From Mycoplasmatota bacterium (GTDB lineage: Bacteria > Bacillota_I > Bacilli_A > MAG-NZ): DNA of 64,000 nucleotides. The notes beneath the pieces were generated by a model. That model worked only from the letters and a program-made list of their open reading frames with translations, was not told the origin of the DNA and did no database searches. Positions within the stretch are counted from its first letter, which is position 1; every line of letters begins with the position of its first letter. Location: contig CP074575.1 of assembly GCA_018394315.1 (NCBI GenBank), positions 682,001 to 746,000 on the forward strand, given 5' to 3'. Positions 21,528-44,000 of the stretch are shown here, one piece after another. Both the position numbers and the translations under genes were made by a program.

Positions 21528-23297
21528 ATGGCTAAGATTATTTTAAACGGAAAATCAATAAGCGCAAAAAATGGGCAAACTATTCTTTCTGTTGCTCGTG
21601 AAAATGGTGTAGAAATTCCAACTTTATGCTTTTTAGAAGAAATTAATGAAATTGGATTTTGTAGAATTTGTGTAGTTGAAGTTGAAGGTGAGAAGGATCT
21701 AGTTTCAGCATGTAATACCGCAATTAAAAGTGGTATGGTAGTTAATACGGATAGTCAAAGAGTACTTGATTCTAGACAAGCTACTCTTACATTATTAGCT
21801 AAAAAACATAGATTCAACTGTTGGGTGTGTCCTAGAGGAGATGGAACTTGTGACTTCTACAATTTATTAAAAGATTATTGTGTAGATAGTTTCAAATTCG
21901 ACCCTGCTGAGGGTAGACATGATTGTGTTGTTCCTGGTACAGGAATTTATCAAGATCAAACAAAATGTATTTTATGTAAACGTTGTGTTGCTGTTTGTAA
22001 CAATGTTGTTACTGCTAAGGTTTATAAATTTAGAGATGAAGAAGGAACAGATCCTATAGTATCTCCAACACCTAGATTACCATTTGATGAGGCAGGATGT
22101 ATTTTCTGTGGACAATGTACAAAAGTTTGTCCAACGGGAACATTAGCGGAAACAGATCACATCGAAAGAGTGGAGCAAGCAATTAGAAATCCTAAGAAAC
22201 ATGTAATTGTACAAATGGCTCCAGCAATAAGAGCTGCAATCGGTGAACCTTTTGGGTATCCAATTGGAACTCCAGTTAGAGAAGTTGAAGGGAAAATGTA
22301 CCGTGCTTTAAAAATTCTAGGTTTTGATGAAGTAACTGATACGAATTTCTCTGCGGATTTAACTATTATGGAAGAAGGTACTGAATTTATCGATAGAGTT
22401 AAGAATAGTGGAACATTACCATTATTCACATCATGCTCTCCAGGATGGGTTCGTTATATTGAAATGTATCGTCCAGAGTATCTAGCGAACCTTTCAAGTG
22501 CTAAATCTCCTCATATGATGCACGGTGCAATTTTGAAGAATTTCTATGCTCCAAAGAGTAAAGATATCGCTCCAGAAGATGTATATGTTGTATCAATTAT
22601 GCCTTGTACTGCTAAAAAATATGAAATATCTCGTCCAGAAATGGAACAAGATGGAATAAGAGATGTAGATGCAGTATTAACAACTAGAGAGTTAGCAAGA
22701 ATGATTAAAAAACATGGTATTGACTTTGTAAACTTAGAAGATTACAAACCAGAAAATAAGTTTGCTGAATATACAGGTGCAGGAACAATATTTGGAGCTT
22801 CTGGTGGAGTTATGGAAGCTGCAGTAAGAACTGTTTATGAAATATTAGAAGGTGAATCATTAGGTAGTATTGATTTAGAAATGATGCGCGGTGTAGAAGA
22901 AGATATTAAAGAGGCGACATTAAAATTACCTAAGACTGGTTTAGAAGTGAATGTAGCAATCGTTCATGGTGGTAAAGGAATTAAGAAAATGTTCGAAATC
23001 CTTGATAAAGGTGAAAAAGAATATCATTTCATTGAGTTTATGGGATGCCCTGGTGGATGCGTAAACGGTGGTGGACAACCAATAGTGAAAGAAGAAATTA
23101 TGGATCAATTCAAGGTTGCAGAATTAAGAGCTAGTGCATTATATGATTCCGATCAAAAAGACACTGAATTTAGAAGATCACACCTTAATAAAGCGGTTAA
23201 ATGGACATACGATGAGTGGTTAGAAAAACCAGGTAGCCACGTAGCACATAAGTATTTACACACTAATTATTCACAAAAGAAATTTAGAAAGGAATAG
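21528..23297 (+). CDS. hydA: [FeFe]-hydrogenase large subunit (group A), copy 1
   Basis: N-terminal 2Fe-2S, His-ligated 4Fe-4S and 2x4Fe-4S; H-cluster motifs TSCSPGW, MPCTAKKYE, EFMGCPGGCVNGGGQP. Confidence 0.95.
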   Translation: MAKIILNGKSISAKNGQTILSVARENGVEIPTLCFLEEINEIGFCRICVVEVEGEKDLVSACNTAIKSGMVVNTDSQRVLDSRQATLTLLAKKHRFNCWVCPRGDGTCDFYNLLKDYCVDSFKFDPAEGRHDCVVPGTGIYQDQTKCILCKRCVAVCNNVVTAKVYKFRDEEGTDPIVSPTPRLPFDEAGCIFCGQCTKVCPTGTLAETDHIERVEQAIRNPKKHVIVQMAPAIRAAIGEPFGYPIGTPVREVEGKMYRALKILGFDEVTDTNFSADLTIMEEGTEFIDRVKNSGTLPLFTSCSPGWVRYIEMYRPEYLANLSSAKSPHMMHGAILKNFYAPKSKDIAPEDVYVVSIMPCTAKKYEISRPEMEQDGIRDVDAVLTTRELARMIKKHGIDFVNLEDYKPENKFAEYTGAGTIFGASGGVMEAAVRTVYEILEGESLGSIDLEMMRGVEEDIKEATLKLPKTGLEVNVAIVHGGKGIKKMFEILDKGEKEYHFIEFMGCPGGCVNGGGQPIVKEEIMDQFKVAELRASALYDSDQKDTEFRRSHLNKAVKWTYDEWLEKPGSHVAHKYLHTNYSQKKFRKE

Positions 23298-23303
23298 ATT
23301 TGA

Positions 23304-24515
23304 ATGGGAAAAGTTATTAATATCAAAGAGTCTCGCGACTTCCTGAATCCAGATAAAGTCTACATTCCACTTGCTAGTGTAAATTCTAAATATTATGATT
23401 TACTTGTCTATGAGGGTGATGAAGTTAAACTTGGTGAAAAGGTTGCTGAGAGATTTGGGGAAGTTAAAACACCGATTTTCTCTTCTGTAAGTGGAGAAGT
23501 TATTGGTGTCGAAGAATTAGAATATCATAGTGGTATCGTAGTTGACCATTTGGTTATTAAAAACGATAAAAAAGACACTATACATGAAGATATTAAGCCT
23601 ATTGAAGGTGAATTAACAGCTAGAAATATTCAAAGAAAAATTGAAGAATTAGGAATAAAAGGTCTAGCACAAAGGGGTCTTTATACTAGATTTGAGTTTT
23701 CTAAAACTGTAGATCACTTATTTGTAAACGCAGTTTATCAAAATGAACCTTTTGTTAAGGTGGACCCAGAACTACTAAGTAGTTATCAAAATGAAATCGT
23801 TGAGGGAGTTAAACTTCTTGCTAAAGCTTCGTTAGCTGAGGTTTCAGTATTAGTTAATAAGAACGAAGATGATAGTATTTATGTAAATGAAGGAATTAAG
23901 ACGATTAAAGTTAATCCTAAGAGAATTGGAGTATGGCATATTTGCGCTATTAGTAAGGCTGTAGGAAAAGAACTATCACATGACTTGTTAGATGATAGAA
24001 TTATGTTTGTTTCTTCAGACACTGCAAGAGCTGTTTATAATGCTGTAACTAAAGGAATGCCTGTTGTTGAAACAGATGTTCTTGTTGTAGGGGATGCTCT
24101 AAATTCTAATTCCCACTATAATATTAAGATAGGAACTCATGTTGAAGAGTTAGTACAGGATTTAGGAGTTATTGAAGATACTGAAGAAGTTTCAGTATAT
24201 ATCGGAAGCATTTTAAGTGGTAGAACAATGCAATCTACTAACTTTGCATGTACTGAATTCATTAATTTCATCGGAGTTGATACTCCTATGAAAGGTGAAC
24301 CACAAGTATGTACAAAGTGTGGACGCTGTAACGATATTTGTCCAGTAGACATTTTGCCTCAAAATGTTATGGATGCAGAACTTAGAATGTTAGATAATCG
24401 TATATTTGAGTTAGATGTTAATAAATGTATTGAGTGTGGACTTTGTTCTTATGTATGTCCTTCGGAAATTAATGTTTTAGAATGGGTTAGACGTGCTAAG
24501 CGTCGAATCAAGTAG
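23304..24515 (+). CDS. rnfC: RnfC-like subunit with degenerate NADH/FMN site
   Basis: RnfC N-terminal barrel (V.EGDEVKLGE...SSVSGEV); CTKCGRCNDICP and CIECGLCSYVCPSEI; GxGGAGFP and NGAECEP motifs absent. Confidence 0.85.
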   Translation: MGKVINIKESRDFLNPDKVYIPLASVNSKYYDLLVYEGDEVKLGEKVAERFGEVKTPIFSSVSGEVIGVEELEYHSGIVVDHLVIKNDKKDTIHEDIKPIEGELTARNIQRKIEELGIKGLAQRGLYTRFEFSKTVDHLFVNAVYQNEPFVKVDPELLSSYQNEIVEGVKLLAKASLAEVSVLVNKNEDDSIYVNEGIKTIKVNPKRIGVWHICAISKAVGKELSHDLLDDRIMFVSSDTARAVYNAVTKGMPVVETDVLVVGDALNSNSHYNIKIGTHVEELVQDLGVIEDTEEVSVYIGSILSGRTMQSTNFACTEFINFIGVDTPMKGEPQVCTKCGRCNDICPVDILPQNVMDAELRMLDNRIFELDVNKCIECGLCSYVCPSEINVLEWVRRAKRRIK

Positions 24516-24525
24516 GGGGTAAAGT

Positions 24526-25584
24526 ATGAAATATTTAAAGCTAAAATCTCCTTTTAAACTAGGGACATTAAAATATAAGCACATCACTCAATCAATTCAA
24601 TTATCATTATTAATAGTTTTGATAGCTAGTTTCTTTATTTATAATAGAGCTGGATATCAAGGTGTTAACATTTTACTTAATGCAATTATAGCAATTGTAG
24701 TTTCATTTATAGTTGAAGTCTTATTTGCAGTTACAGCGAAGAAGTTTACAACTATTAAAGATTTATATTTTAAAGAAAATTTATTAATGATTCCATTACT
24801 TACAGTATTATTACTACCATTACATACGCCGATATTTGTAATTATTATCGCAACTATTGTTGGAGTATGGATTGGTAAATTAGTATTTGGTGGATATGGA
24901 TTCAGTATATTTAATCCAGCAATTGTTGGTGTGTTATTCGCTAATTTATCGTTTAAGTCGCAATTAGCTATGCCAGATGGAATAATTTATCCATTACAAA
25001 GATTAAAAGATGCGACAGCTAATTTAAGTATTGCTGGTTTAAATCCACATCACTTATTATTAGTTGATGGTGGATACGGAATGGCAATCGGGACTGCAAG
25101 TGTAGGATTATTAATATTACTGATTGTTGTATTATCTATAATAAGAGCAATTGACTGGCGTATAAGTTTAACTTATTTAGTTACTGTGTTTGGTATTACA
25201 TTTGTGATGGGTAAATTCTTTTTTGCTCAAGAGCAAATTCTTACAGGTTTAGTTATCTTTGGTGCTTTATTCTTAGTTACTGATGATGTCACTTCACCTA
25301 CAAGTAGAGAAACTAAAATTGTATATGCAGTAATTGTTGGTTTATTAACAGTAATGATTAGAACAATTGGTTCTAATTTAGAGGGAGTATTATTTGCTGT
25401 ATTACTAGGTAACTTAATCACTCCGTTCTTAAATAGAACAGTTAAGAGAAGTAATTTGATATCTTTAGCAAAAGCTTTAGTATTTGCAGTTATTGTAATT
25501 GTAGCTGCAGGTGCTGCATTAAATGCAATATTAGAAGGTAGAATTCCTTCTGAATTAACAACTATCATGGGGGTGATGATTTAA
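24526..25584 (+). CDS. rnfD: RnfD-like membrane subunit
   Basis: KLVFGGYGFSIFNPA; FLVTDDVTSP; FAVLLGN. Confidence 0.9.
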   Translation: MKYLKLKSPFKLGTLKYKHITQSIQLSLLIVLIASFFIYNRAGYQGVNILLNAIIAIVVSFIVEVLFAVTAKKFTTIKDLYFKENLLMIPLLTVLLLPLHTPIFVIIIATIVGVWIGKLVFGGYGFSIFNPAIVGVLFANLSFKSQLAMPDGIIYPLQRLKDATANLSIAGLNPHHLLLVDGGYGMAIGTASVGLLILLIVVLSIIRAIDWRISLTYLVTVFGITFVMGKFFFAQEQILTGLVIFGALFLVTDDVTSPTSRETKIVYAVIVGLLTVMIRTIGSNLEGVLFAVLLGNLITPFLNRTVKRSNLISLAKALVFAVIVIVAAGAALNAILEGRIPSELTTIMGVMI

Positions 25585-27317
25585 TGAAACACGTTAAAAT
25601 TATATCGTCTCTATTAGTAGTGGTTGTAATTTGTATGGTTGCAATATTCCTTATTGAGGGACCTACTTCGAAGATAATCAACGAAAGACTAATGCAAGAA
25701 GCAAATGCAGCATTATTTGAGATTTATCCAGATGCAACGGGATTTGAAGAAGTCACTGAAGAGTATCCTACTGATGAAGCGATACTTAATATATTTACTG
25801 TGAAGGAAGGCGAAACTCAAGTAGGTGTGGTTTATAAAGGAGAAGTAGCTGGTTATAATCCTGGTGTTCAGTTCTTACTTGGTGTAACTACTGATGATGA
25901 AGTGGCAGGATTTAAAATTCTAGCAAACTCAGAAACAGCAGGTATCGGTAAAGACTTAATTGAGCATCCAGATTTTGCTGAACAATTCGCTGGTGTACCA
26001 AGAGAAACAATGCAAGATGTAGGTGTTGATTTAGTAGCTGGTTCTACGGCTAATGTTACATTAGGTGGAGTTAATAAAGGAGTTAAGCATGTATTAACTT
26101 ATCATGGTGTTAACTTTAAAGGTGAAGTCGCAGTCGTACCTGAAACTGAAGAAGAAAAAATCGAAAGATTAAAATCTGAATTCTTCCCAGGATCTACATT
26201 TACAGATGTAACTGGAGACTATCCTGAAGGAGATATTATCTTAGAAATCTTAGAAGCATCAAATGGTGGGTATATATTTACTACCTTGTTCAACGGGTAT
26301 TCATTAGATTCTGTATATATGATCGGTATTGGTACTGATGGTGTTGTAACGGGTTATAGTACATTATCTACTAAGGAAACTGCTGGAATTGGTGAAGCAT
26401 TAGTTATGAATGAAGAATTCCAAGCACAATTTGCTGGAATTAGCGTAGAACAGTTAAAAGAAACTGGTGTAGATTCAGTAGCAGGAACAAGTGCTCCATT
26501 TACATTAGAAGGTTTAAATGAGAGTTTAAGTGAATTAGCTAGTTACTTTAATAAAGAAGTATTAGGTGTTCAAGATACAGTTGCTCCGGAGTTGGCTATA
26601 CTTCCTAAACAAACTGAGTTTGAGGTTGGTTCAACTGCTCCAGTTTGGGATAGTTATGTAACTGCAACAGATAATGAAGATGGTGTAGTAGTAACTCACG
26701 ATGCTGAAGCTGTTGTTGATATGAATGTTGCTGGTACTTACACTGTTATGTACACTGCTACAGATACTGCAGGAAACTATACAACTCTAACTATTGAGTT
26801 TGTTATCAGTGAAGGTGCAGTAGAAATTGTATTAGTTCCTGTATCAGATGAAGTAGAAGCTATCTTAGCTACTATGGATCCTGAGGCAAGTGAATATTCA
26901 GACGAATTAATCTCTGATGAGATTATTAAAGGTATTTATACAAGTAGAGATGCGGATAAAAACATTACTAGTGTATTCTACGATGTTGAGACAGAAAATG
27001 GTGGATATGCATCTAATAACAAAATTATGGTTCAATTTGATCCATCTATAAATTCAATTACTAAAGTGAATGTATATGTTTCAAAAGCTACTTATAAAAC
27101 TGATTCATATGCTCCAAACTCTGGAAAAGGTGAAGACTTAGACTCACCATTAATTGCTGCAGTTTGGGAAGGTGTTGCTCAAGTAGGTCAAGTTACTGAA
27201 GCAGATGTAGACTCAGTATCAGGTACTACAGCTGTAGAAACATTCCCATCATTAATTGAAGTGATTGATTACGTTATTAATTATCAAGTTACTAATCAAA
27301 TAGGAGGTGCTGAATAA
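25584..27317 (+). CDS. rnfG: RnfG-like protein with three FMN-binding-type domains and an Ig/HYR-like spacer
   Basis: ETAGIG twice; VDLVAGST, VDSVAGTS, VDSVSGTT; DTVAP...ATDNEDG...GTYTVMYTATDTAGN Ig-like domain. Confidence 0.85.
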   Translation: MKHVKIISSLLVVVVICMVAIFLIEGPTSKIINERLMQEANAALFEIYPDATGFEEVTEEYPTDEAILNIFTVKEGETQVGVVYKGEVAGYNPGVQFLLGVTTDDEVAGFKILANSETAGIGKDLIEHPDFAEQFAGVPRETMQDVGVDLVAGSTANVTLGGVNKGVKHVLTYHGVNFKGEVAVVPETEEEKIERLKSEFFPGSTFTDVTGDYPEGDIILEILEASNGGYIFTTLFNGYSLDSVYMIGIGTDGVVTGYSTLSTKETAGIGEALVMNEEFQAQFAGISVEQLKETGVDSVAGTSAPFTLEGLNESLSELASYFNKEVLGVQDTVAPELAILPKQTEFEVGSTAPVWDSYVTATDNEDGVVVTHDAEAVVDMNVAGTYTVMYTATDTAGNYTTLTIEFVISEGAVEIVLVPVSDEVEAILATMDPEASEYSDELISDEIIKGIYTSRDADKNITSVFYDVETENGGYASNNKIMVQFDPSINSITKVNVYVSKATYKTDSYAPNSGKGEDLDSPLIAAVWEGVAQVGQVTEADVDSVSGTTAVETFPSLIEVIDYVINYQVTNQIGGAE

Positions 27318-27940
27318 TGAAGAATAAGAAAAGTTTTGGTGAAATATTTACAACTGGTATCTTAAAACAAAACCCAACATTTGTTCAGTTCCTTGGAATG
27401 TGTCCAACATTAGCGGTTACTAGTAAAGTAGAAAATGCGCTTGGTATGGGTGCTGGTGTAATTTTTGTATTAGTAATGAGTAACTTTATAATTTCATTAA
27501 TTAGAAACTTTGTTCCTGATGAAGTACGTATTCCAATTTATATCGTTGTTATCGCTTCATTAGTAACAATATTAGAAATGAGTATGAATGCTTTTATGCC
27601 AGATTTAGCAGCTGCGTTAGGAACTTTCTTAAAGTTAATCGTAGTTAACTGTCTTATCTTAGGTAGAGCAGAGGCATTCGCTGCAAAGAATAGTCCGGTT
27701 AAATCTATTGCTGATGGATTAGGTATGGGGATAGGATTTACATTAGGTATTTCATTTATCGCTGTATTCCGTGAAGTATTAGGTTCTGGTACGATTCTAG
27801 GATTTGAAGTAATTCCAGCTGATTTCCAGTTATCAATATTAGGTGGACCAGCTGGTGCGTTCTTAGTGTTCGGTATTTTAGTAGCTCAAGTTACTAAACT
27901 AAGAATGATAAAAGCAAAGAAAGCAGAGGTGAATGCGTAA
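27317..27940 (+). CDS. rnfE: Rnf subunit E
   Basis: LGMCPTLAVT; LIVVNCLILGRAEAFA. Confidence 0.95.
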   Translation: MKNKKSFGEIFTTGILKQNPTFVQFLGMCPTLAVTSKVENALGMGAGVIFVLVMSNFIISLIRNFVPDEVRIPIYIVVIASLVTILEMSMNAFMPDLAAALGTFLKLIVVNCLILGRAEAFAAKNSPVKSIADGLGMGIGFTLGISFIAVFREVLGSGTILGFEVIPADFQLSILGGPAGAFLVFGILVAQVTKLRMIKAKKAEVNA

Positions 27941-28517
27941 TATGGAATATATCGCTTTAGCTTTTAGTGCTATATTTGTATCTAATGTAGTATTATCGCA
28001 GTTTTATGGTTTATGTCCTTTCTTAGGAGTATCAACAAAGAAAAGTTCTGCGTTAAGTATGGGTATGGCTGTTACATTTGTAATCACATTAAGTTCAATG
28101 ATTGCTTGGGCAATAGATACATATATCTTATTGCCAAATGATATTAGATATTTGAATACAATCGTGTTTATCTTAGTAATTGCTGCGTTTGTACAATTGG
28201 TTGAGATGGTTATTAAAAAATTCTCACCTCCTATATATCAAGCATTAGGTGTTTACTTACCTTTAATCACAACGAACTGTGCGGTATTAGGGGTTGCGAT
28301 TGATGCTACTCAAAAGTATAATTATTCATTCGGTAGTACTGTTGTTTATGCTCTTGCAATATCACTTGGATATGCATTAATTATCTTCTTATTCTCTGCA
28401 ATTCGAGAAGAGATGGACGCATATCAAATACCCGAAAACTATAAAGGAATTTCTATAGCTTTAATAAGTGCATTCATTATGGCTATGGCATTCATGGGAT
28501 TTGGAGGGATGGTATAA
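27933..28517 (+). CDS. rnfA: Rnf subunit A
   Basis: GLCPFLGVS; YLPLITTNCAVLG. Confidence 0.95.
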   Translation: MRNMEYIALAFSAIFVSNVVLSQFYGLCPFLGVSTKKSSALSMGMAVTFVITLSSMIAWAIDTYILLPNDIRYLNTIVFILVIAAFVQLVEMVIKKFSPPIYQALGVYLPLITTNCAVLGVAIDATQKYNYSFGSTVVYALAISLGYALIIFLFSAIREEMDAYQIPENYKGISIALISAFIMAMAFMGFGGMV

Positions 28518-28518
28518 T

Positions 28519-28824
28519 ATGGTTTTAGTAGTTGTATTAGCAGTTTCGCTATCTGTTGTGTTAGCTGCAGTGTTATCATTTGCTTCAAAAGCTCTATATG
28601 TTTATGAAGATCCAAGGCTTCAAGATGTAGTTAGTATGTTACCTCAAGCGAATTGTGGTAACTGCGGGAACCCTGGTTGTAAAGCTATGGGAGAAGCGAT
28701 TTTAGCAGAAGATGCCAAGCTTACATCATGTAAACCTGGTACTCAAGAAATGCGTGAAGCAATCGCAGAATATTTAGCTTCTCATCCTGATGAGGATGGA
28801 GAGTATACAAAGGTTAAAATGTAG
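28519..28824 (+). CDS. rnfB: Truncated RnfB (TM plus single FeS domain, 101 aa)
   Basis: ATG 28519 just after rnfA; LPQANCGNCGNPGC...CKPG; no ferredoxin domains. Confidence 0.85.
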   Translation: MVLVVVLAVSLSVVLAAVLSFASKALYVYEDPRLQDVVSMLPQANCGNCGNPGCKAMGEAILAEDAKLTSCKPGTQEMREAIAEYLASHPDEDGEYTKVKM

Positions 28825-28896: not shown

Positions 28897-29026
28897 GGAA
28901 AAAGGGATATAAGTGCAACACAATGCCATTATTATGTATTTTGTATACAAACCATTGACTATGTTGAATTTGCTGTTATAATGTTATTGAAAATAAAAAT
29001 AAAATTAAAAAAAGGGGAGAATTACA

Positions 29027-29899
29027 ATGAAAAAATTAGCGTTATTGTTAACAGTTGCTTTAGTATTTTCTTTAGCAGCATGTACTAAAGAAGTAGAGAT
29101 TCCTGAAGAAGTAACTATGGAAAATATTGATCAATTTTTAGAAAGAGACAATGTACAATTAGTTGACCTAAGAAACTACTCAGACAAAATGAGTGCAGGT
29201 TACATTGATGGATTTGAAATTATTTCATTCTTCGAATATTTAGATGGAAATGCGGTTGCTAGAAACGATGGTTGGAACTGGCAAGCAGATAATCTTTTAG
29301 ACCAAGATTTATTAGAAAATTTCTTTGATAAAGAAGCTGATGCTATCTTCATGATGTGTGCTGGTGGAACTAGAGCTGGTTTCGTTAAAGCTGCTTTAGA
29401 AGAAATCGGATACACAAATGCATTTAATATTGGTGGATTCGGTGACTACAAAGGTGAAAACAAAGTTATGGGTGATGGCGTTTATGGTAAATTACCTGCA
29501 GAAGTAACTATGGCTAATGTTGACCAAGTATTAGAAGCTGATGGTGTTCAATTAGTTGACTTAAGAGACTGGGATGACAAAATGAAATCAGGTTACATCG
29601 CTGGATTTGAATTTATTCCTTTCTTCGATTATTTAGAAGTACAAAATGTATTAGTTAGAAATGATGGATGGAATTGGCAAGATGCTAATGTATTAGATTC
29701 TGATATCTTAATGAACTTCTTTGATCAAAATGCAAAAGCTATTTATTTAATGTGTGGTAGTGGAACTAGAGCTGGATTTGTTAAATCTGCACTAGAATCA
29801 TTAGGATATACAAATGTTCATAATGTTGGTGGAATCGCAGATTACGCTGGTGAAAACAAAGTTTTAGGTGACTCAGTATACGTTTGGCCTGCAGCTTAG
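29027..29899 (+). CDS. Tandem rhodanese-domain lipoprotein (sulfurtransferase)
   Basis: Lipobox LAAC; two repeats with VQLVDLR and active-site loops CAGGTRA and CGSGTRA. Confidence 0.9.
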   Translation: MKKLALLLTVALVFSLAACTKEVEIPEEVTMENIDQFLERDNVQLVDLRNYSDKMSAGYIDGFEIISFFEYLDGNAVARNDGWNWQADNLLDQDLLENFFDKEADAIFMMCAGGTRAGFVKAALEEIGYTNAFNIGGFGDYKGENKVMGDGVYGKLPAEVTMANVDQVLEADGVQLVDLRDWDDKMKSGYIAGFEFIPFFDYLEVQNVLVRNDGWNWQDANVLDSDILMNFFDQNAKAIYLMCGSGTRAGFVKSALESLGYTNVHNVGGIADYAGENKVLGDSVYVWPAA

Positions 29900-29911: not shown

Positions 29912-30577
29912 ATGAAAAAACTATTAACGTTACTCGTGGCGTTAGTATTAGTACTTAGTTTAAGTGCATGTGCTGATTACGCCCAAAATTTCACTGAAAA
30001 TAGTGAAACAAATACAGAAACACCTAAATCAACAGAAACAACTGAATTTGAGAATCAAGCTGGGGTATATACAGTAATGCATATCGCTGGTCATGGAGCT
30101 GAAGTAGAGTCTCCGGTATACGTACTATTTGAGTACCCAACAATGAAGTTTACGAAATATCAAATTGCGTTTACTTCTTGTACTTGACGTCCTGCAGAAA
30201 AAAACTATAAGCAGGTTGCTTATGTTGAATTAAATAACAGGGACGCATCATTAAGATTTATTTCATTTGATGTTGATTCTGATGGAGATTATACTCCAGC
30301 AGTATGGGGAGATTCTTCTCCAATACCACCTTATGGTGATGAAAGTTTAAGAGCTACTGGTAAAACTAAAGAAGATTTTATGACCGACTACATTAACGGA
30401 TTCTTATTAAATAAGAAACCTGAAGATCTAGCAAACGTATCTACTATTGATGATATAAAGGCCCAATATTTAGATGAGATTCCAAATATTGATAGCTATG
30501 CTGGTTCAAGTGTAACAATTAATAATGTCTTAAGAGCTTTTAAAGGATTACAAGAATATCACATGAATAATCAATAA
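29912..30577 (+). CDS. Putative selenoprotein lipoprotein (221 aa; Sec at TGA 30185-30187), joining track ORFs 29912-30187 and 30380-30577
   Basis: Lipobox LSAC; FTSCT-U-RPAE; frame stays open after the TGA to TAA 30577; SECIS-like hairpin; C-terminal IDSYAGSSVT motif; directly upstream of selC. Confidence 0.85.
30203..30226 (+). promoter_or_regulatory. Candidate SECIS element of the lipoprotein
   Basis: AAC(U)AUAAGC-AGGUU-GCUUAUGUU stem with bulged U and G-containing apical loop ~26 nt after the UGA. Confidence 0.65.
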
Positions 30578-30682
30578 AGATCAAGATCCCCATTATTATG
30601 AGGGTCTTTTCTTTTACTTGAAAATATTTGGTCATATATGTTGGAATCGTGGTAATAATATAGTATAATTTTATGGATACTT

Positions 30683-30779
30683 GGAAGCACTTACGTAACT
30701 GGTGTACGTACTGGTCTTCAACACCAAGTTGTGGGTGTAAAAACTCATGGGTGGGTTCGATTCCCATGTGCTTCCGCCA
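30683..30779 (+). tRNA. selC: tRNA-Sec (TCA)
   Basis: GGAAGCAC/GTGCTTCC 8-bp acceptor stem, extended D-stem, TCA anticodon at 30718-30720, long variable arm, GCCA; TTGGAA-17-TATAAT promoter at 30641-30669. Confidence 0.95.
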
Positions 30780-30803: not shown

Positions 30804-31829
30804 ATGTCTAGTAAAAAATTTGACTTGATGAAGTTCAGTAGCTGTGGAGGCTGAGCTGGTAAAGTAGGGCCGGGAGTTCTACAAAACATAGTTTCAAATT
30901 TACCTCAACAAATAGATGAAAAACTAATCTGTGGTCTAGAAAACAGTGAGGATGGAGCAGTTTATGAATTAGATAGCGAAAACTATTTAGTCAGTACCTT
31001 AGACTTCTTCTCGCCTAACATTTCTGATCCTTATACATTTGGATTAATTGCAGCCGCCAATGCTCTAAGCGATATTTTTGCAATGGGTGGAGAGATTTTA
31101 TATGCTCTCAACATATTGTCTTTTCCTTCTGAAGTTGAAGAAGAGGCTATAACTGAAATATTAAAAGGTGCTATACATAATGTTAATAAAGCCGGTGGAG
31201 TAGTTGTTGGAGGACATACTACTAAAAACAATGAAATTGTTTATGGGTTGAGTGTAACTGGAAAAGTGAAAAGAAAAAGTATTATGTTAAATAGTAATGC
31301 TAAAGTAAATAATAAGATTATATTGACTAAAAAAATAGGTACTGGTATTTATATGAGTGAGCTTTCTAAGGGTAGTGATGATTATAAGGAAGTTGTTGAA
31401 TCAATGACTACACTTAATAAAGAAGCTGCTGACATTATGATGAATTACAATGTAAGTACATGTACTGACTTAACTGGATTCGGACTTATTGGACATTTAT
31501 CAGAAGTCGCTGTAGCAAGTGACTTATCATTAAATATTTACTTTGATAAACTACCTTTGTTTGATAGGACTCTTGAATTAGTTAATAATACTAACGGTGG
31601 AATGCTTAGAAATATAGAACACTTTAGCAAGTATGTTAATTATGAAAACATTAAGAAAGAGAATATTAATATTTTAGCTGACCCTCAAACCAGTGGTGGA
31701 TTATTTATTTTTGTTGATGAGCAAGATGCGGATGAATTGTTAAAGGAATTACAAGATAAAGGAATTACGCAAGCTAGAGTTATTGGTGAAACAATCGAAA
31801 AAGGTGATAGCTTTATTAATATTTTATAA
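30804..31829 (+). CDS. selD: Selenophosphate synthetase, itself a selenoprotein (Sec17, TGA 30852-30854)
   Basis: MSSKKFDLMKFSSCGG-U-AGKVGP in frame with track ORF 31083; DFFSP, AANALSDIFAMGG, TDLTGFGLIGH, DPQTSGGL. Confidence 0.95.
30864..30882 (+). promoter_or_regulatory. Candidate SECIS element of selD
   Basis: GUAGGGC-CGGGA-GUUCUAC 7-bp hairpin starting 10 nt after the UGA. Confidence 0.7.
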
Positions 31830-33218
31830 GTGAGTATGCAAGAGTTATATAGAAAAATACCTCAAGTTTCCAAGTTAATAGAAGATAAATCAGTAAGACA
31901 TTTTTTGTCTTACTTTTATATGGAGGAAATTAAACAAGAAATTGAAGTAGTTTTAAAAGATATAAGAAGTAAGATTAAGAGTGAATTTATTGTAAGTCTT
32001 AATTATGAAGATGTTGTGTCAATGATAACTAATAGATTAAGAATTCATGATCTATACTCTTTAAGACGGGTAATAAATGGAACTGGTACTGTTTTACATA
32101 CTAATTTAGGTAGAGCGGTTATGTCTAAGAATGCAATAGATAATGTTGTTAGAGTATGTAAAGGTTATAGTAATTTAGAGTATGATATTGAAGCTGGTAA
32201 AAGGGGTAGTAGATATGACCACCTAGAAGCTATGGTATCTAAAATAGTTGGTTCTGAATCAGCAGTAGTTGTTAATAATAATGCTGCTGCTACTATGCTT
32301 ACCGTTGCTGCATTTTCAACAAATAAAGAAGCAGTTGTTTCTAGAGGGGAGTTAGTCGAGATTGGTGGTTCATTCAGGATTCCTGAGATCATTGAAGCGA
32401 GTGGTGCTATTTTAAAAGAAGTAGGAACAACTAATAGAACTCACCTAATCGACTATGAAAGAGCAACGAGTGAGAAGACTGGAATGTATTTGAAGGTCCA
32501 TCCATCAAATTACCATATCGATGGTTTTATAAAGAATGTCACTAATAAAGAGATAGTAGAACTAGCTAAAGAAACAAAAGTAATTACATGTGAAGACCTA
32601 GGTAGTGGAGCAATAATTGACTTTTCCAGATACAATTTCTATAAAGAGAATATGGTACAGGAGTCTTTAAAGAGTGGAATAGATTTAGTTACTTTTAGTG
32701 GTGATAAGTTACTAGGTGGACCACAAGCAGGAATTATTGTTGGTAAAAAAGAACTAATTGATAGAATTAAGAAACATCCACTAACAAGGGCTTTTAGGGT
32801 TGGTAAAATGACTATAGCTGCTTTAGAAGCAACACTAAGAGATTATTTAAGTCATCAAACGGTAGTTGAAACTACGCCCACTTTAAGAATGTTATTTGAG
32901 AATAAAGAAGAATTAAGAGCAAAAGCTACTAAATTAACTAATAGAATTAATGAAATAGATTATTTTGATAGTGAGGTCATTCCCGTGAATTCAACAGTAG
33001 GTGGAGGAAGTTTACCTTTAAGTATAATTGAAAGTTATGGGATCTCTATTAAATCAAAAGATATGTCAGTTAATGATCTTGAAAAATTTTTAAGAAAAGG
33101 GAAAAATCCAGTCATTGGATTGATTAATGAAAATAGGTATTACCTTGATGTTAGAACATTGCTTAATGGTGATGATGAGTTGATAGTTAAACAATTAGAG
33201 GAATATAAAAATGAATAA
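31830..33218 (+). CDS. selA: L-seryl-tRNA(Sec) selenium transferase
   Basis: VINGTGTVLHTNLGRA; VSRGELVEIGGSFRIP; FSGDKLLGGPQAG (PLP Lys). Confidence 0.97.
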   Translation: MSMQELYRKIPQVSKLIEDKSVRHFLSYFYMEEIKQEIEVVLKDIRSKIKSEFIVSLNYEDVVSMITNRLRIHDLYSLRRVINGTGTVLHTNLGRAVMSKNAIDNVVRVCKGYSNLEYDIEAGKRGSRYDHLEAMVSKIVGSESAVVVNNNAAATMLTVAAFSTNKEAVVSRGELVEIGGSFRIPEIIEASGAILKEVGTTNRTHLIDYERATSEKTGMYLKVHPSNYHIDGFIKNVTNKEIVELAKETKVITCEDLGSGAIIDFSRYNFYKENMVQESLKSGIDLVTFSGDKLLGGPQAGIIVGKKELIDRIKKHPLTRAFRVGKMTIAALEATLRDYLSHQTVVETTPTLRMLFENKEELRAKATKLTNRINEIDYFDSEVIPVNSTVGGGSLPLSIIESYGISIKSKDMSVNDLEKFLRKGKNPVIGLINENRYYLDVRTLLNGDDELIVKQLEEYKNE

Positions 33219-35055
33219 TTTTGTTATTGGTACTGCCGGTCATATTGACCATGGGAAGACATCGTTGATTAAAGCACTAACTGGAATTAATACAGACACT
33301 TTAAAAGAAGAGCAAAGAAGAGGAATAACAATTGACCTTGGATTTTCATATTTGAAACTCTCAGATGATTTAACTGTTGGGATTGTTGATGTTCCAGGCC
33401 ATGAGAAGTTAATCAAGAATATGTTATCTGGTGTATGTGGAATTGACTTGATATTACTAGTTATTGCAGTTGATGATGGCATAATGCCACAAACAAGAGA
33501 ACACTTTGAAATAATAAATTATCTTAATGTAGAGAATATTTTAGTAGTTTTAACTAAGACTGATTTGGTTGATGGGAATAGAGTATCGGAAGTGAAAAAC
33601 GAAGTCAAGAATGAATTTGGTGTATCTAATTTTGTAAATTTCTCTATATATGATGAAAATAGCTATTCTAATGTAAAAGAAGCTATTACTTCTATGCTAG
33701 TTTTTGATGATGAAGATGATACTGATACATTCAGGATGCCGATTGATAGGGTGTTTAATGTCAAGGGACACGGTGTTGTAGTAACGGGGTCTTCTATATC
33801 TGGTAAAGTTAGAATAGGAGATAAACTAGAGGTGTTACCATCCAAAAATATTGTGAGAGTTAAAGGTATCCAAGTTTTTAAAAAGAAGGTTGATATTGCT
33901 TATAAAAAGACGAGGATAGCCTTAAATATTTCAGGAATTAAGCAACAAGACTTAAATAGGGGTAAGATCATTTCTACACCAAATAAACTCATTCCTACGA
34001 AGATATTAGATGTTAAAATTAAATTGTCAAATATTGACGGAGTACTAAAACACTTAGAGAATGTGAAATTTCATTATTTAGCGAGTGAAGTAAAGGCAAA
34101 AATTAAATTGTTTAATATAAAAGAAATAAACAAGGGTGAAGTTGTTTACGGACAATTGTTACTAGAAGAAGAACTTTATGCAGTCAATGGCGATTTAGGT
34201 GTTTTAAGAAAGATAAACCCTAATATTACAGTTGCTGGTGTTGAGATCATTAATGTTCAGGGTAAATTTGCAAACAGAAAAGATAATTCCTATGTCGAAA
34301 AAATAAAGGTAATAGAAGAGGGCGACTTATTTAATATAGTTAGTAGTTATTTAACTAGCAATCTTTTTTCAACCAAGAAGAATTTATTATCTGACTTAGG
34401 AATCAGTGATAATGAACTAAGTAAGCTTGATTTGGATGTTATTAAGGTAGATGATATTTATATTTCAAAAGAGAATTTTAATATCTTCAAGCGAGATGTT
34501 TTGGTTATACTAAATGATTATCATAAGCGAAATAAATATGAATTAGGAATTAATAAGAGTGAACTGTTTAATACATTGGATTTGAGTATTTCTAGTAAAG
34601 CTGCTACTAAATTTTTAGGACTTATAGATGATATTGAAGTAACAGATAAAGTCAAACTTAAATCATTTCAGATAATTCTAAGCAAAGAAGAAAATGTTAT
34701 TGCAGAAAAAATATTAAAGTATGTAGATAGTAATGATTTTAAGCCTCCTAAATATAAGGAGATTGTCGCATTTACAAGTGGTGATAAAGCTATAGAGGTT
34801 TATTTTACGTTAATAAAACAAGGAAAACTAGTAAAATTAGATGATGATATAGTATTAACGAAGCATATGATTTCAAAATTGTTGGAAGTATTGGAATATT
34901 ATTTTGAGAAAAATAATATTCTAACATTAACAGATGCAAGAGAAATCTTAAACTCCTCAAGGAGGTATGTAGTTCCTTATTTAGAATATCTTGATAAGAT
35001 TGGATATACTAAACGAGTTGAGAGTGGAAGAACAAAAAAAGGGGTTGTGAATTAA
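33211..35055 (+). CDS. selB: Selenocysteine-specific elongation factor
   Basis: GTAGHIDHGKT; EEQRRGITIDLGF; C-terminal winged helix SSRRYVVPYLEYLD. Confidence 0.97.
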   Translation: MNNFVIGTAGHIDHGKTSLIKALTGINTDTLKEEQRRGITIDLGFSYLKLSDDLTVGIVDVPGHEKLIKNMLSGVCGIDLILLVIAVDDGIMPQTREHFEIINYLNVENILVVLTKTDLVDGNRVSEVKNEVKNEFGVSNFVNFSIYDENSYSNVKEAITSMLVFDDEDDTDTFRMPIDRVFNVKGHGVVVTGSSISGKVRIGDKLEVLPSKNIVRVKGIQVFKKKVDIAYKKTRIALNISGIKQQDLNRGKIISTPNKLIPTKILDVKIKLSNIDGVLKHLENVKFHYLASEVKAKIKLFNIKEINKGEVVYGQLLLEEELYAVNGDLGVLRKINPNITVAGVEIINVQGKFANRKDNSYVEKIKVIEEGDLFNIVSSYLTSNLFSTKKNLLSDLGISDNELSKLDLDVIKVDDIYISKENFNIFKRDVLVILNDYHKRNKYELGINKSELFNTLDLSISSKAATKFLGLIDDIEVTDKVKLKSFQIILSKEENVIAEKILKYVDSNDFKPPKYKEIVAFTSGDKAIEVYFTLIKQGKLVKLDDDIVLTKHMISKLLEVLEYYFEKNNILTLTDAREILNSSRRYVVPYLEYLDKIGYTKRVESGRTKKGVVN

Positions 35056-39513: not shown

Positions 39514-39644
39514 CATGATATGTTAATTGATTTTTTTTGTTCTAAATAGATAATTAATATCCTGGAAGTAAATTACCAATTAATATTTTATCCATATATG
39601 ATATAATATTTAAGCATTAAATGTTATGAATGGAAGTAAACTAT

Positions 39645-40937
39645 ATGAAAAAAATTATACTATTAATGATTGTGATTTTAGTAGGGTGCACAAAGAGTAT
39701 GGAACCTATAAAAATCGAGGAAGCTACAAATGAAACTACTATAGATTGTGAGAAATTTCCTTCTGCAACAGCGTGTATAGACAAAGGGGAAACAACTAAA
39801 CCAATCATTATTCCAGAGGTGATTGAGCAGACTGATCCTGATCCAATTCCTGATCCGGAACCGGAAACAGAACCAGTGCCAGAACCTGAGCCATACGATA
39901 TTTGTGATGACTACCCTAATCACGCGGAGTGTTTGGAGCCATTAACAAGTTTTCAAGTTTACACTCACGAGAGTGGAAATGATTATTTTGATTCGTTTAT
40001 AAGTATGAAATTATATATAGCATCTGATCAAAGAGGTTTTGATTATGTATCAATATATAGGAGACTAGGAGAAAAGTATCATCAAATAAGTGATAAGTAC
40101 CATAATTATGATGGTGTAGTTAATATAAAGACTATTAATGATAATCCAAGCAATACACATTATCTGTCTGAGGAGTTATATAATTTAATAAAATTTTCTA
40201 TTGCTAATTATGATTTAACAGAAGGTTATTTTGATATTTCTATTGGACCTGCTTCAAGTATTTGGCATTATTATAGAGAAAGATGTCTTGGCTATGATAA
40301 TCTTGTGCCATACTTTTGTAGCGTACCGAAAGTGGATGAGTTAAATAATGTAAGAAATTACATTGATATAGATAAGATTGTTCTAAATGATGATGAAATG
40401 TCAATAACAATGGAAGAAGGAATGAGTCTTGATTTAGGTGGAGTAGCTAAAGGATATTTTGTTGAGATGTTAGCTGATGAGTTTATGAAAAACGGGCTTA
40501 GAGCCTTCTTGATAAATGCAGGTGGTAATATTAAGACATACGGGAATAGACCACAGGATGAATTTTATACAATCGGTGTTCAAGATCCAACAAAACCAAG
40601 AGGGGAAGCTAAGTTACCATTTTCTTTGAATATTCCTGGAGGTTATTCTGTTGTTTCATCTGGAGATCAAATAAGATATTATGAAGTGGATGGTGAAATA
40701 TATCATCATATCGTTAATCCATATAATTTATTTCCGGATAGACATTCAAGACAAGTTACGATTATTACAAATGATTCACGAGCTGCTGACATTTTATCGA
40801 CAAGTGTATATTTAATGACTATAGAAGAAGGTATAGAATTCGTAGATAATTTAGATAATGTTGAAGCTATTTGGTATGGACTTGATGATGAAGTTTATTT
40901 TTCTAAAAATGCACTTGATTTTATTGTTTTTGATTAG
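39645..40937 (+). CDS. apbE: FAD:protein FMN transferase (flavinyl transferase) lipoprotein
   Basis: Lipobox LVGC; FDISIG; LDLGGVAKGY; INAGGN; SSGD..RY; YHHIVNP; ADILST. Confidence 0.93.
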   Translation: MKKIILLMIVILVGCTKSMEPIKIEEATNETTIDCEKFPSATACIDKGETTKPIIIPEVIEQTDPDPIPDPEPETEPVPEPEPYDICDDYPNHAECLEPLTSFQVYTHESGNDYFDSFISMKLYIASDQRGFDYVSIYRRLGEKYHQISDKYHNYDGVVNIKTINDNPSNTHYLSEELYNLIKFSIANYDLTEGYFDISIGPASSIWHYYRERCLGYDNLVPYFCSVPKVDELNNVRNYIDIDKIVLNDDEMSITMEEGMSLDLGGVAKGYFVEMLADEFMKNGLRAFLINAGGNIKTYGNRPQDEFYTIGVQDPTKPRGEAKLPFSLNIPGGYSVVSSGDQIRYYEVDGEIYHHIVNPYNLFPDRHSRQVTIITNDSRAADILSTSVYLMTIEEGIEFVDNLDNVEAIWYGLDDEVYFSKNALDFIVFD

Positions 40938-41010: not shown

Positions 41011-44000
41011 ATGAAAAAAATATATATATTTCTAAGTTTATTTACTGTTGTTTTTGTTTTATCCGCATGTAAGGAAAAAATTATTGATATTCCTATTGAA
41101 ATGCAACAGGAAAACGAAGAGAATGATCCAGTTGATAAAGAAGACACTACAGAAACTCCAGATGATAAGACAGAAGATCCTTGTGATCCAGTTATTATCG
41201 AAGTGGAAGTACCTGTACCTGTTGAAATTGAAAGACAAAGAAAATATAAACCAGGAACTTACTTTAATTCAAGTGAGAATTCAGTTGGTACCAATGGATA
41301 TAACTTTGTTGTTGTTGTAGTTGATGGATACGGTGATATTTCGGGTGTTCTTATAGATGAAACTTATTCAAGCAAAAGGATTTATGCAGACTCTGATGGA
41401 AAACTTTATGTTTATGTCCTTGGGAATGGAACAACTGTGCCAAACTCTTATCGTTTAATTGATAAGGATTTAGATTATAACTCTTATCCAACTGGCATGG
41501 ACGCATTAACAACTGATGACTATATTGTGGGAATTCATTCTGATGAGATTAATGAACTATCTGAAATTCAAGTGAATGAAACTAAAGCATACTTAGGAAA
41601 TCAACTAGATATGGCAGGGAAATACACATATCAAAAACAAGTTGAGATGATTTCAGAAAAGATAATTACCGATAATACAACTTATGGATTCAACTTATAC
41701 GAATCAGGTAACAGTATAAAAACAGATTCCATAGCAGGAGTATCAATCCATATATCAGAGTATCTAGAACTTGTTCAAGAAATTCTAGATAATGATGCTA
41801 GAATATCTGAAAGTGATTATTTATTATCAAAAGATGATCCTATATATGGGATTTATGAACCGGGATCGTATGTTTCTTATTCAGATAAACTATTAGTTGA
41901 CGACTCATTAAACTTCGATTTTTCATTTGTTGTCGTAGATGATTTTGGAGTTATTAGTGGTGTATACTTGGACTCAACGAGTTCTGACACTATCACTGAA
42001 GGTAGTAATTCTTCTAAAGGAATTATGAAAGAAGCTTATGGCCTAGGTATTATGGCTGAGACAAGTCCTTGGTATGCTCAGGCTAATGCATTAAGTCAAC
42101 AAATTATAAATAACCAAGGAATCAAAGGAATTGAATTATTAAGAATTGATCCGCTAAATGGTTTTGATGATAGTTCAATTGATATATTAGAGACTGAGGG
42201 GCGTGTACCTTTATATACTGATTCAGTAGCAAGTGTTTCAGTTCGTGTAGATGGTATGCTTCAAGCAGTTGATAAAACTTTAAATTCCATAAAATATTCT
42301 AATTATGTGGATGGTACTTACTACAAGTCAAATAGTGGTGAAAATCATATCTTTAATTTACTGACTATTAAAGACGGAGAAATTAAGTCGATTTATATAG
42401 ATAAAGTGAAGAGTGTTTATCAAGCTCAGCACTCGAAATCTAACAATGAGTACAAGGTATTTAAATTTATACGTCTATTTAAGGTGAATAATGTTACATT
42501 ATCCGCTTCTATTAGAGTCTATCAAGACGGAGATGATTATTACTCGTTAGATGATTTTCACTATATTGGTAGTCTTGAATTAGATGACCGTGAAAAGATA
42601 AATAGAGATGAACTTATGAATTTAGATACTGTAGAGAGTGATACTTTAGTAGCAGTCCCTGGTTATTATACTGCTAGAATTGCTAAGGATAGTGACTATG
42701 TGAATTTAAATGGTTGGTCAAATTATATTAATTTAATTACTAGTAAATTTCTTGAAAGTAATGGGACAGATAGTCTACTGGTAGATGAACAGGGATTAAC
42801 TTTATATGATGATATGGCAGTCTTTAATACTACTGATATAGTGAATTTAGTAAACAAAACACTATATTCAGCAAGAAACATAGAGAACAACCTCATTAAT
42901 GAAGTGGGTAGTACACTTTCAGATAAGTTAGCTGATGGAGAGTACTTTGTAAATCTCTTACCGGAATCTACCGGATATATAAAGTTTGGATATATGACTG
43001 TTCTTGATGGGGATATTATTTCGCTATACTTTGATCATACGATTGATAATGAAACTTATTCTACAACATTATTCTCTAGCAACAAATTAACTTCTAATAA
43101 TGGATTATCGATAAATGAACAAATAGTTTTATTAATGAATACAATAATTGATAATCAAAGTACTTTAGTTAACACGATTATAGATTCCTATAACTATACC
43201 AGTGAAGAAACATTAACATCAATTAACAATTTAGAAATTTTTCAAAATGATGATTTCAAGTCACCTATTGATGATTATATTGATATATTCGAGATGTTAG
43301 TGAGGGAAGCAGCAGATGAGAAATTAGTTCAGGATGCGAATTTAATTAATGAAGAATTACTTAATAATGAAAGATACTTTAATAATTCATACTTTATTAT
43401 AGATACTACTGAAGTGGAATATTTACCTTTATCAATTTCTAATTTAGAAACCAGCAACTATTACACATTAAAATGGAGTTCAGAAAACACAAAAATTGTC
43501 GATCTCGATATTAATGATAATGGATATGATGTAGTAATTGATGACGACATCGAAGAAGATGAATTTATTACACTAAAATTACAGGTATTTTTGGAAAATA
43601 CTTATAAAATAGTGGATACATTTTACTACGAGGTTCCACTGCTTACTAGAAGAGATGAAGGGATTAGAATACTGAATAATCCAGAGTTTGATTTACCAGC
43701 TGCATTTTTACTTGAAAACCACACGTTCGAATTTCCAACTTCGGATAAAGTTCAAGTCAAATGGATTTCATCTGACGCAAGTGTTTTTGAGGACGGAGTG
43801 ACTAGAAACATTAATTCTAATAAGGAATTGATACTAACTGCTTTCGTAGATTTAAATGAGGATGGACTATTAGATAACGGTGAACCGACTAAACAGTTTA
43901 ACGTTATGGTTTTAACAGAAGAAAATGCTATTGAGAAGGTTCATAGTGCTATTGGCTTGTCTAATATTTATAAATATTTGGATAAGGATTTTAGATTAAG

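Follow-up and report, generated by a model that had tools for sequence, protein, structure and literature searches.

A reading frame in the window, the whole 64,000-nt stretch of Mycoplasmatota DNA analysed here, is interrupted by one TGA, which raises the question of whether this codon is read as selenocysteine (Sec) and, if so, what kind of protein the gene encodes. The frame starts at 29912, spans 221 codons and ends with TAA at 30575-30577, and its only internal TGA is codon 92 (30185-30187), 3' of the codons for ...AFTSCT. The features concerned are the following:

29912-30577, + strand: selenoprotein gene (221 aa), with a lipoprotein signal, a linker and a predicted RnfG/NqrC-type FMN-binding domain carrying C90-T-U92-R
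29960-29971, + strand: lipobox L17-S-A-C20, with a predicted lipidated Cys20 (L17 and C20 invariant in 16/16 rows)
30179-30190, + strand: C-T-U-R motif, with the in-frame TGA (30185-30187) read as Sec

Translation table 11 splits the gene into a 91-aa open reading frame and a 65-aa piece from 30380, as the sequence-only reading had recognised, and the 91-aa form (P0072/P0144) and the 65-aa tail (P0107) are separate public database proteins. Public annotation truncates genes of this C-x-U family at the TGA; a homologue cut at the same place (P0090) carries the name 'hypothetical protein'. The lipobox LSAC, also noticed earlier, is present as L17-S-A-C20, and the lipobox pattern is matched by 52 of 64 full-length homologues, most of the remaining ones having a signal peptide as judged by eye. 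The selenoprotein is thus supported as a predicted exported, membrane-anchored extracytoplasmic lipoprotein, in line with the export first proposed for it.

Four lines of evidence lend strong support to Sec read-through: the TGA aligns with Cys codons, TGA recurs in other lineages, the Sec machinery is present, and a hairpin is conserved. Codon 92 was tallied in 176 related loci, which are redundant and include the window's own, and the 165 matches to a strict motif pattern have TGT in 80, TGC in 77, TGA in 8 and no other codon, i.e. Cys in 157 of 165. Among 12 loci lacking a strict match, 7 show Cys under a looser pattern and one (L097) reads U-T-U, with TGA at both Cys positions and an unchanged gene order; the remaining 4 have no motif, and 2 of these are weak signal-peptide matches. 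Position 92 is C or U in all 105 alignment rows. As the patterns used for the loci demanded the first Cys or the C-terminal motif, degenerate members are under-sampled. Homologues with Cys at this site (SCTCR) had been named beforehand as support for Sec; 74 database proteins carry C-T-C-R, as against about six without one or both Cys. In addition, a search of 1.84 billion representatives gave 125 profile matches, nine of which end exactly at C-T, as truncation at UGA would predict; P0115, one of the nine, falls by sequence in a third branch.

The opposing reading, that the TGA is a true stop (in a pseudogene or through a sequencing error) or encodes Trp, draws on two homologues out of 15, P0002 and P0003, which have Trp at position 92. 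Trp at this site had been named beforehand as evidence against Sec; it does occur, but both proteins nest among TGA genes in the tree, and the Trp is thus probably a gene-caller reading of TGA. Code 4 (TGA as Trp) was rejected: 161 of the genome's 1329 long ORFs terminate at TGA, and CCA is the anticodon of the one tRNA-Trp that was detected. Also against a stop or an error, eight other distinct genes with intact downstream frames carry TGA at this Cys position (L021, L069, L097, L098, L099, L100, L164 and L183; the gene of G309 is counted, and three come from one metagenome assembly), and a second assembly encodes a protein 98% identical with the same last residue (P0072). Contigs from three DNA sequencing runs gave patchy cover, with no listed piece spanning the TGA. 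In the host genome, TGA also marks the Sec positions already known for SelD and for two genes each that we take to be GrdA and GrdB. SelA scores above the cut-off in 4 of 4 TGA genomes checked, but 6 of 7 Cys genomes checked have no match at that level, the other (G304) having SelA and tRNA-Sec; the genome of L069 has tRNA-Sec and SelA.

The GrdA and GrdB genes lie in two glycine/betaine-reductase-type operons on the minus strand of the host genome (G000:C1, near 1616683, 1618170, 231327 and 227987; L187 and L188), both with an in-frame TGA in GrdA and GrdB. Together with SelD and the gene studied here, they bring the genome to at least six selenoprotein genes.

A hairpin likened at the outset to a SECIS element lies downstream of the TGA:

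30203-30226, + strand: SECIS-like hairpin located 26 nt 3' of the TGA, with a bulged U and an apical GGU loop

RNAfold reproduces it as described, with a GGU triloop closed by A-U, the bulged U, a 7-bp upper stem and -7.0 kcal/mol. The published bacterial SECIS model has a loop of 3-9 nt with G in the first two places, a distance of 16-37 nt from the UGA, a stem of 4-16 bp and an energy of at most -7.5 kcal/mol (PMC13188914). The loop, spacing and upper stem of the hairpin fall within this model, whereas the energy of the hairpin alone is just short of the cut-off, a point for the no-Sec reading; the outcome depends on the folding window, as a 66-nt window gives -15.4 kcal/mol. Against shuffled sequences, 4 of 200 were as good at 31 nt and 7 of 200 at 41 nt, and a 53-nt window around the hairpin was not better than shuffles (56 of 200). 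In six related Sec genes, codons for identical residues are invariant at 7 of 8 positions inside the hairpin versus 13 of 58 elsewhere. Over the corresponding 27 nt, the folding energy of the Sec genes lies between -6.3 and -6.7 kcal/mol, whereas 100 distinct segments from Cys genes average -2.0 and 7 of them reach -5 kcal/mol. Of these 100 segments, 86 encode a Trp in the hairpin region, where all six Sec segments have another residue. The stem shows only one-sided changes (A-U to G-U), with no two-sided compensation. In L097, a single hairpin is within range of both UGAs (32 and 26 nt). Also for the no-Sec reading, L069 and L164 have the TGA and a downstream frame open after it, yet neither this hairpin nor any other that beats shuffles, and a SECIS shared by both was not found. 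Taken together, 29912-30577 is a selenoprotein gene, as confirmed by computation only, in which the TGA is almost certainly recoded as Sec, and the chance that it is a stop or Trp is very remote.

The gene had been placed directly upstream of tRNA-Sec, and its surroundings comprise the following:

28955-28982, + strand: sigma-70-like site (11/12; consensus match only), 5' of the rhodanese and selenoprotein pair
30583-30608, + strand: terminator-like hairpin with a U-rich tail, 3' of the selenoprotein gene (z -2.53, 3/200 shuffles)
30641-30669: promoter-like site between the selenoprotein gene and tRNA-Sec
30683-30775, + strand: tRNA-Sec, anticodon TCA (Rfam 65.3 bits, cut-off 47)
30804-31829, + strand: SelD, with its own in-frame TGA (U17 at 30852; TIGR00476 323 bits, cut-off 125)
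31830-35055, + strand: SelA (31830-33218; TIGR00474, E 1e-172) and what we take from its sequence to be SelB (33211-35055)

The gene does adjoin tRNA-Sec, but the terminator-like hairpin and the promoter-like site intervene, and the gene is thus more likely to be transcribed together with the rhodanese gene that ends 12 nt before it. The terminator-like hairpin was missed by a separate terminator scan, and promoter matches overall are not above chance (8 found versus 10.7 expected). This neighbourhood would be explained if the selenoprotein and rhodanese pair reduced selenite or carried selenium to SelD. Sec genes lie beside it in the window as they do in L097 and G309, and MccSep, a periplasmic selenoenzyme that reduces polysulfide, is reported to reduce selenite as well (PMC13510729). 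However, the pair occurs with Cys in 6 genomes without SelA over the cut-off, the Sec forms of L021, L099 and L100 have no tRNA-Sec or selA nearby, and a probable terminator separates the gene from tRNA-Sec in the window; we regard a role in selenium acquisition as quite improbable.

The family is uncommon, with a strong match, judged by the E-value gap, in 16 of 298 other scored genomes of the phylum; all but these 16 of the 29 genome matches are at the signal-peptide level. One of the closest homologues (L021) is assigned by its record to Candidatus Izemoplasmatales and lies in a genome of the same family as the window genome, and Cys forms are on record for two cultured strains, Holdemania massiliensis AP2 and Anaerovirgula multivorans SCA. 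Three Sec/Cys changes are required on the tree, among them a Cys copy in L100 that is nested among Sec genes and adjoins a Sec copy, though a single Sec clade is not rejected (p-AU 0.19). A search of 150 relatives of the L069 genome returned no homologue, which makes the L069 Sec gene sporadic in its group.

Two arrangements deserve separate mention. The tandem at L100:6550-8582 consists of a rhodanese, a Cys paralogue (C-G-C-R, without the hairpin), a second rhodanese and a Sec copy, and the Cys paralogue looks like a selenium-independent backup. At L097:8235-8243, two Sec codons lie two apart (U-T-U), and a tRNA-Met call by ARAGORN inside this gene is probably spurious.

The window protein has no Pfam or NCBIfam match beyond signal-peptide noise, and by itself matches neither FMN_bind (PF04205) nor RnfG (TIGR01947). 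NCBIfam has no model for the family core (105 members) or for 16 whole or fused members and relatives, and its models of known CxU and rhodanese selenoproteins match the core of none of the 105 at E <= 0.01. However, 52 of the 105 members match FMN_bind at E <= 0.1, the best at 2.8e-6, and the nearest Atlas match to a Cys homologue is a cluster of 68 members auto-named 'FMN-binding protein family' (score 0.92). An AlphaFold (AF2) model built from the 105-row alignment (pLDDT 94, pTM 0.90) was compared in a wide structural search, in which the top five matches are RnfG or NqrC with Z-scores of 9.5, 8.4, 6.7, 6.2 and 5.8. The best is RnfG (PDB identifier 7zc6_G) with an rmsd of 3.7 over 118 aligned residues; only two matches exceed Z 8, though we find the coherence of the top rows convincing. 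All 81 residues of the minimal flavinylated domain CbFMN4 align to model residues 35-169, starting at the strand that precedes the C-x-U loop, and CbFMN4 is also the best, weak match (E 0.037) in an HMM search of PDB sequences. Foldseek against the PDB returned nothing at E <= 0.001. Setting the family profile against 104 domains of the RnfG type yields 95%, with confidence limited to the C-terminal half, whereas single-sequence comparison of the window protein with the window RnfG gives a probability of 4.8%; the profile alignments did not reproduce the N-terminal strand register or the placement of the C-x-U loop. On the strength of the model, the domain very probably adopts the RnfG/NqrC FMN-binding fold.

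A motif near the C-terminus had been compared with ApbE target sites:

30491-30511, + strand: flavinylation-like motif D194-x-Y-A-G-S-S200, with Ser200 as the predicted FMN acceptor

The motif is present, though not as the protein end that it was first taken for, as 21 residues follow it. Over 105 rows, it has D in 104, G in 100, Ala in 48 and S/T at position 200 in all 105. The ApbE target consensus is [S/T]GA[S/T] (PMC8238504, available text), from which the window motif differs at two places, while distant members are canonical. The earlier suggestion of a possibly FMN-modified protein is accordingly supported by the predicted fold and by the conserved acceptor but not by the exact consensus, and on sequence and model the protein probably carries covalent FMN. 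In NqrC, two loops enclose the flavin ring, one following strand 6 and the other being the ETPGLG loop (PMC4348036). From strand order and alignment range in the model, we infer that C-T-U-R stands in place of the first of these loops and the conserved Y-T-x-G-x-W-G-D in place of the second.

Three further residues are highly conserved in the 105 rows, namely His57 (98), Asp134 (104) and His217 (103), and together with C90 and U92 they could be ligands of a metal, which would make this a flavin and metal protein with a redox or metal-uptake/detoxification role in place of a thiol-exchange enzyme. The U-x-U of L097 would suit a soft-metal site, and Sec has been proposed as a metal ligand in several families (PMC13188914). 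However, no metal transporter recurs among 50 neighbour ORFs scanned (chosen from 236), and a metal site leaves the link to the rhodanese unexplained; we consider it rather unlikely.

This link concerns the gene immediately upstream:

29027-29899, + strand: tandem-rhodanese lipoprotein, a conserved partner with an active-site Cys loop in both domains (PF00581, E 7e-14)

Among related and partly redundant loci, whose records span Mycoplasmatota, Bacillota, Spirochaetota and Actinomycetota, 111 of 122 have a same-strand rhodanese gene at most 1.8 kb away, and in loci of at least 9 kb tblastn found rhodanese in 66 of 69 with Cys and 5 of 5 with Sec. Moreover, model matches reveal rhodanese fusions in P0003, P0035, P0039 and P0134. 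The rhodanese link, which the sequence-only reading lacked, is the best clue to function. The partner rhodanese domains (n=69) have the usual active-site Cys in 49, a shifted Cys in 18 and no Cys in 2; the shifted form is seen at L022:7189-7599 and in 17 other rows, mostly at the fourth loop place (A-D-G-C-I-R type).

In one further locus, L189:8850-9125 (G309), the Sec gene is seemingly fused to the C-terminal part of a rhodanese, with the frame interrupted upstream; either a fusion that has broken or a fault in the assembly could account for this.

Of the 122 loci, 31 have a thioredoxin-like lipoprotein near the gene and 23 a small FMN-binding lipoprotein; in one branch, the module extends to both (L026:3578-3985, L029:8677-9571 and L035:8545-8943). 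The thioredoxin-like neighbour brings up the alternative that the flavinylated C-x-U/C protein is an extracytoplasmic thioredoxin reductase for this lipoprotein; such a system would maintain surface disulfides, repair or activate proteins at the surface, and count the rhodanese among its clients. A CxxC motif is present in 5 of 7 thioredoxin-like lipoproteins inspected, P0075, P0080 and P0100 have by eye a C-terminal CxxC extension, and for DsbD systems gene clusters have been described that combine ApbE, thioredoxin and a CXC protein (PMC8238504, available text). However, the extensions have no Pfam match at E 0.001, and 91 of 122 loci, the window included, have no thioredoxin neighbour, as against rhodanese in 111. 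A disulfide-maintenance role is therefore unlikely in our view.

The setting in the window also includes a candidate electron source and a modifying enzyme:

23304-28824, + strand: run of Rnf-type genes, the proposed electron source, including an RnfG of 577 aa with three domains; the other subunits are presumed from their sequences
39630-40937, + strand: ApbE flavin transferase, the proposed modifying enzyme (PF02424, E 2e-56)

The order in the cluster is [FeFe]-hydrogenase-like genes (so named by us on recognition), the Rnf run, the rhodanese lipoprotein, the selenoprotein, tRNA-Sec, selD, selA, selB and ApbE. Elsewhere, the 69 long Cys loci include 26 with ApbE and 17 with Rnf genes. All 10 further genomes searched for ApbE have it, in one case as a fragment, and RnfD turned up in 4 of 5.

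Some other genes of this cluster are unusual. The window RnfG (25584-27317) has three FMN-binding domains, three flavinylation-like motifs and an Ig-like domain in its 577 aa. At 21528-24515, a [FeFe]-hydrogenase-like gene is immediately 5' of a short (403 aa) RnfC-like gene, an order that recurs in many Izemoplasmatales loci and suggests a hydrogenase-coupled Rnf variant. Just 3' of ApbE, 41011-44919 encodes a 1302-aa lipoprotein with no Pfam match and one flavinylation-like motif, possibly a multi-flavinylated surface protein.

Based on the C-x-C/U pair, the FMN-carrier fold, the near-constant rhodanese partner and the Rnf/ApbE setting, we favour a mechanism in which an ApbE-flavinylated lipoprotein uses its C-x-U centre to move electrons of the Rnf chain to rhodanese-loaded sulfur; as a whole, we give it an even chance. 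ApbE would attach FMN to Ser200, and the C-x-U loop would sit beside the flavin ring, at the site of the ring-flanking loop of NqrC. The FMN would be reduced by an Rnf-type flavin chain (RnfD/RnfG, and in other loci the small FMN lipoprotein) and would then reduce the C90-U92 selenenylsulfide. The rhodanese would form a persulfide from thiosulfate or polysulfide, which the selenolate would attack, releasing sulfide and recycling the rhodanese carrier. The module would thus be a flavin-to-thiol converter, through which fermenting anaerobes could dispose of electrons on external sulfur or obtain sulfur, with Sec perhaps an optional upgrade of the attacking Cys. We infer both the binding of the partner and the substrate. 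By analogy, MccSep demonstrates polysulfide reduction by a Sec/Cys enzyme of the periplasm (PMC13510729). A cultured Izemoplasma relative grows better when given thiosulfate (PMC8397711), which the passages covered in that paper explain differently, and its supplement has no rhodanese or FMN entry.

Some observations count against this mechanism. NqrC-type FMN carries one electron (PMC4348036, available text), whereas cleavage of an S-S bond needs two. The partner rhodaneses with a shifted Cys (18/69) or without Cys (2/69) do not favour it, nor do the one genome in five in which RnfD was not found and the Rnf genes flanking only 17 of 69 long Cys loci. As ApbE occurs in about half of bacteria (PMC8238504, available text), its presence is weak support.

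We conclude that this is a real and apparently uncatalogued selenoprotein family, a variant of ApbE-type flavinylated carriers with a C-x-U centre and a rhodanese partner. In agreement with the initial impression that no described selenoprotein family was recognisable, none of the catalogues checked (a 119-family table, NCBIfam and Pfam) contains it. The table, of 2026, lists 119 prokaryotic selenoprotein families and no FMN-binding one (PMC13188914), a few entries having been compared by description only and none being described as FMN-binding. The available texts of deep-Sep (PMC12013277) and of the BSepDB main article (PMC13326102) do not mention the family, nor do those of the flavinylation surveys PMC8238504 and PMC11334425, in which 'rhodanese' occurs 0 times, as does 'selen' in PMC8238504. 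We found no literature linking a selenoprotein with flavinylation and Rnf or with a flavinylated lipoprotein, or Izemoplasma with selenocysteine. The Sec family is thus likely undescribed, Haft and Tolstoy 2025 having been compared via the review table only; the Cys family, as the auto-named Atlas cluster indicates, exists in databases without description.

The family adds a fold unrepresented among the 119 catalogued prokaryotic selenoprotein families. Flavinylated FMN-binding domains are usually seen as plain electron carriers, and here such a domain appears to have its own catalytic thiol/selenol pair. The natural series of C-x-C, C-x-U and U-x-U, plus a Cys copy beside a Sec copy, offers a test of what Sec adds, and the two-gene module is small and has Cys forms in cultured strains, which opens it to routine biochemistry. 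That this is the first selenoprotein with a covalent flavin, its small surface domain uniting ApbE-attached FMN with a C-x-U centre (U-x-U in one case) and coupling Rnf electron flow to rhodanese-sulfur reduction outside the cell, is a tentative claim that we hold at somewhat less than even. If true, it would represent an undescribed sulfur-reduction route in wall-less Izemoplasmatales-type bacteria, and the Cys form would extend this route to some spirochaetes, Bacillota and Actinomycetota.

The closest known relatives are RnfG, NqrC and other FMN_bind (PF04205) proteins, with which the family shares the predicted fold, the extracytoplasmic site, the ApbE and Rnf context, and a D...G-x-S/T acceptor motif where the last helix begins. 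Unlike RnfG and NqrC, it has a near-invariant C-x-C/U-R, an extra N-terminal hairpin and conserved His residues; the window protein is a separate lipoprotein beside a true RnfG (25584-27317), and the family lies far below the RnfG cut-off (5/105 at E <= 0.01). NADH-dependent persulfide reductase (Npsr) and fusions of CoA-disulfide reductase with rhodanese run electrons from flavin to thiol to rhodanese-bound sulfur, a logic like that proposed here, but they are cytosolic FAD/NADH/CoA enzymes with a different fold. Npsr is mentioned in the available text of PMC13510729, the source for MccSep/ExtKL of Geobacter, which is likewise an extracytoplasmic selenoenzyme whose Sec and Cys cleave S-S bonds, and whose organism has a rhodanese-like lipoprotein, ExtH (cited therein). 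MccSep is, however, a multiheme cytochrome of unrelated sequence and fold, whereas here the carrier would be a covalent flavin, and the analogy is functional only. The ApbE-DUF3570-thioredoxin-DUF4266 (CXC) clusters with DsbD are a proposed flavinylation-thiol hybrid outside the cytoplasm (PMC8238504, available text), though with the flavin site and CXC on separate proteins of other families; the C-x-U family has no match to the families of these clusters, no DsbD was seen here, and the account of them in that text does not mention rhodanese or Sec. Lastly, known CxU and rhodanese selenoproteins, represented in our comparison by rhodanese form 3 (NF041203), the UshA-like family (NF041198), ferredoxin-thioredoxin reductase (NF041072) and Sec.1, share the C-x-U motif and a tie of Sec chemistry to rhodanese (PMC13188914). 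They differ in having other domains, and in the family described here the Sec lies in the partner of the rhodanese and not in the rhodanese.
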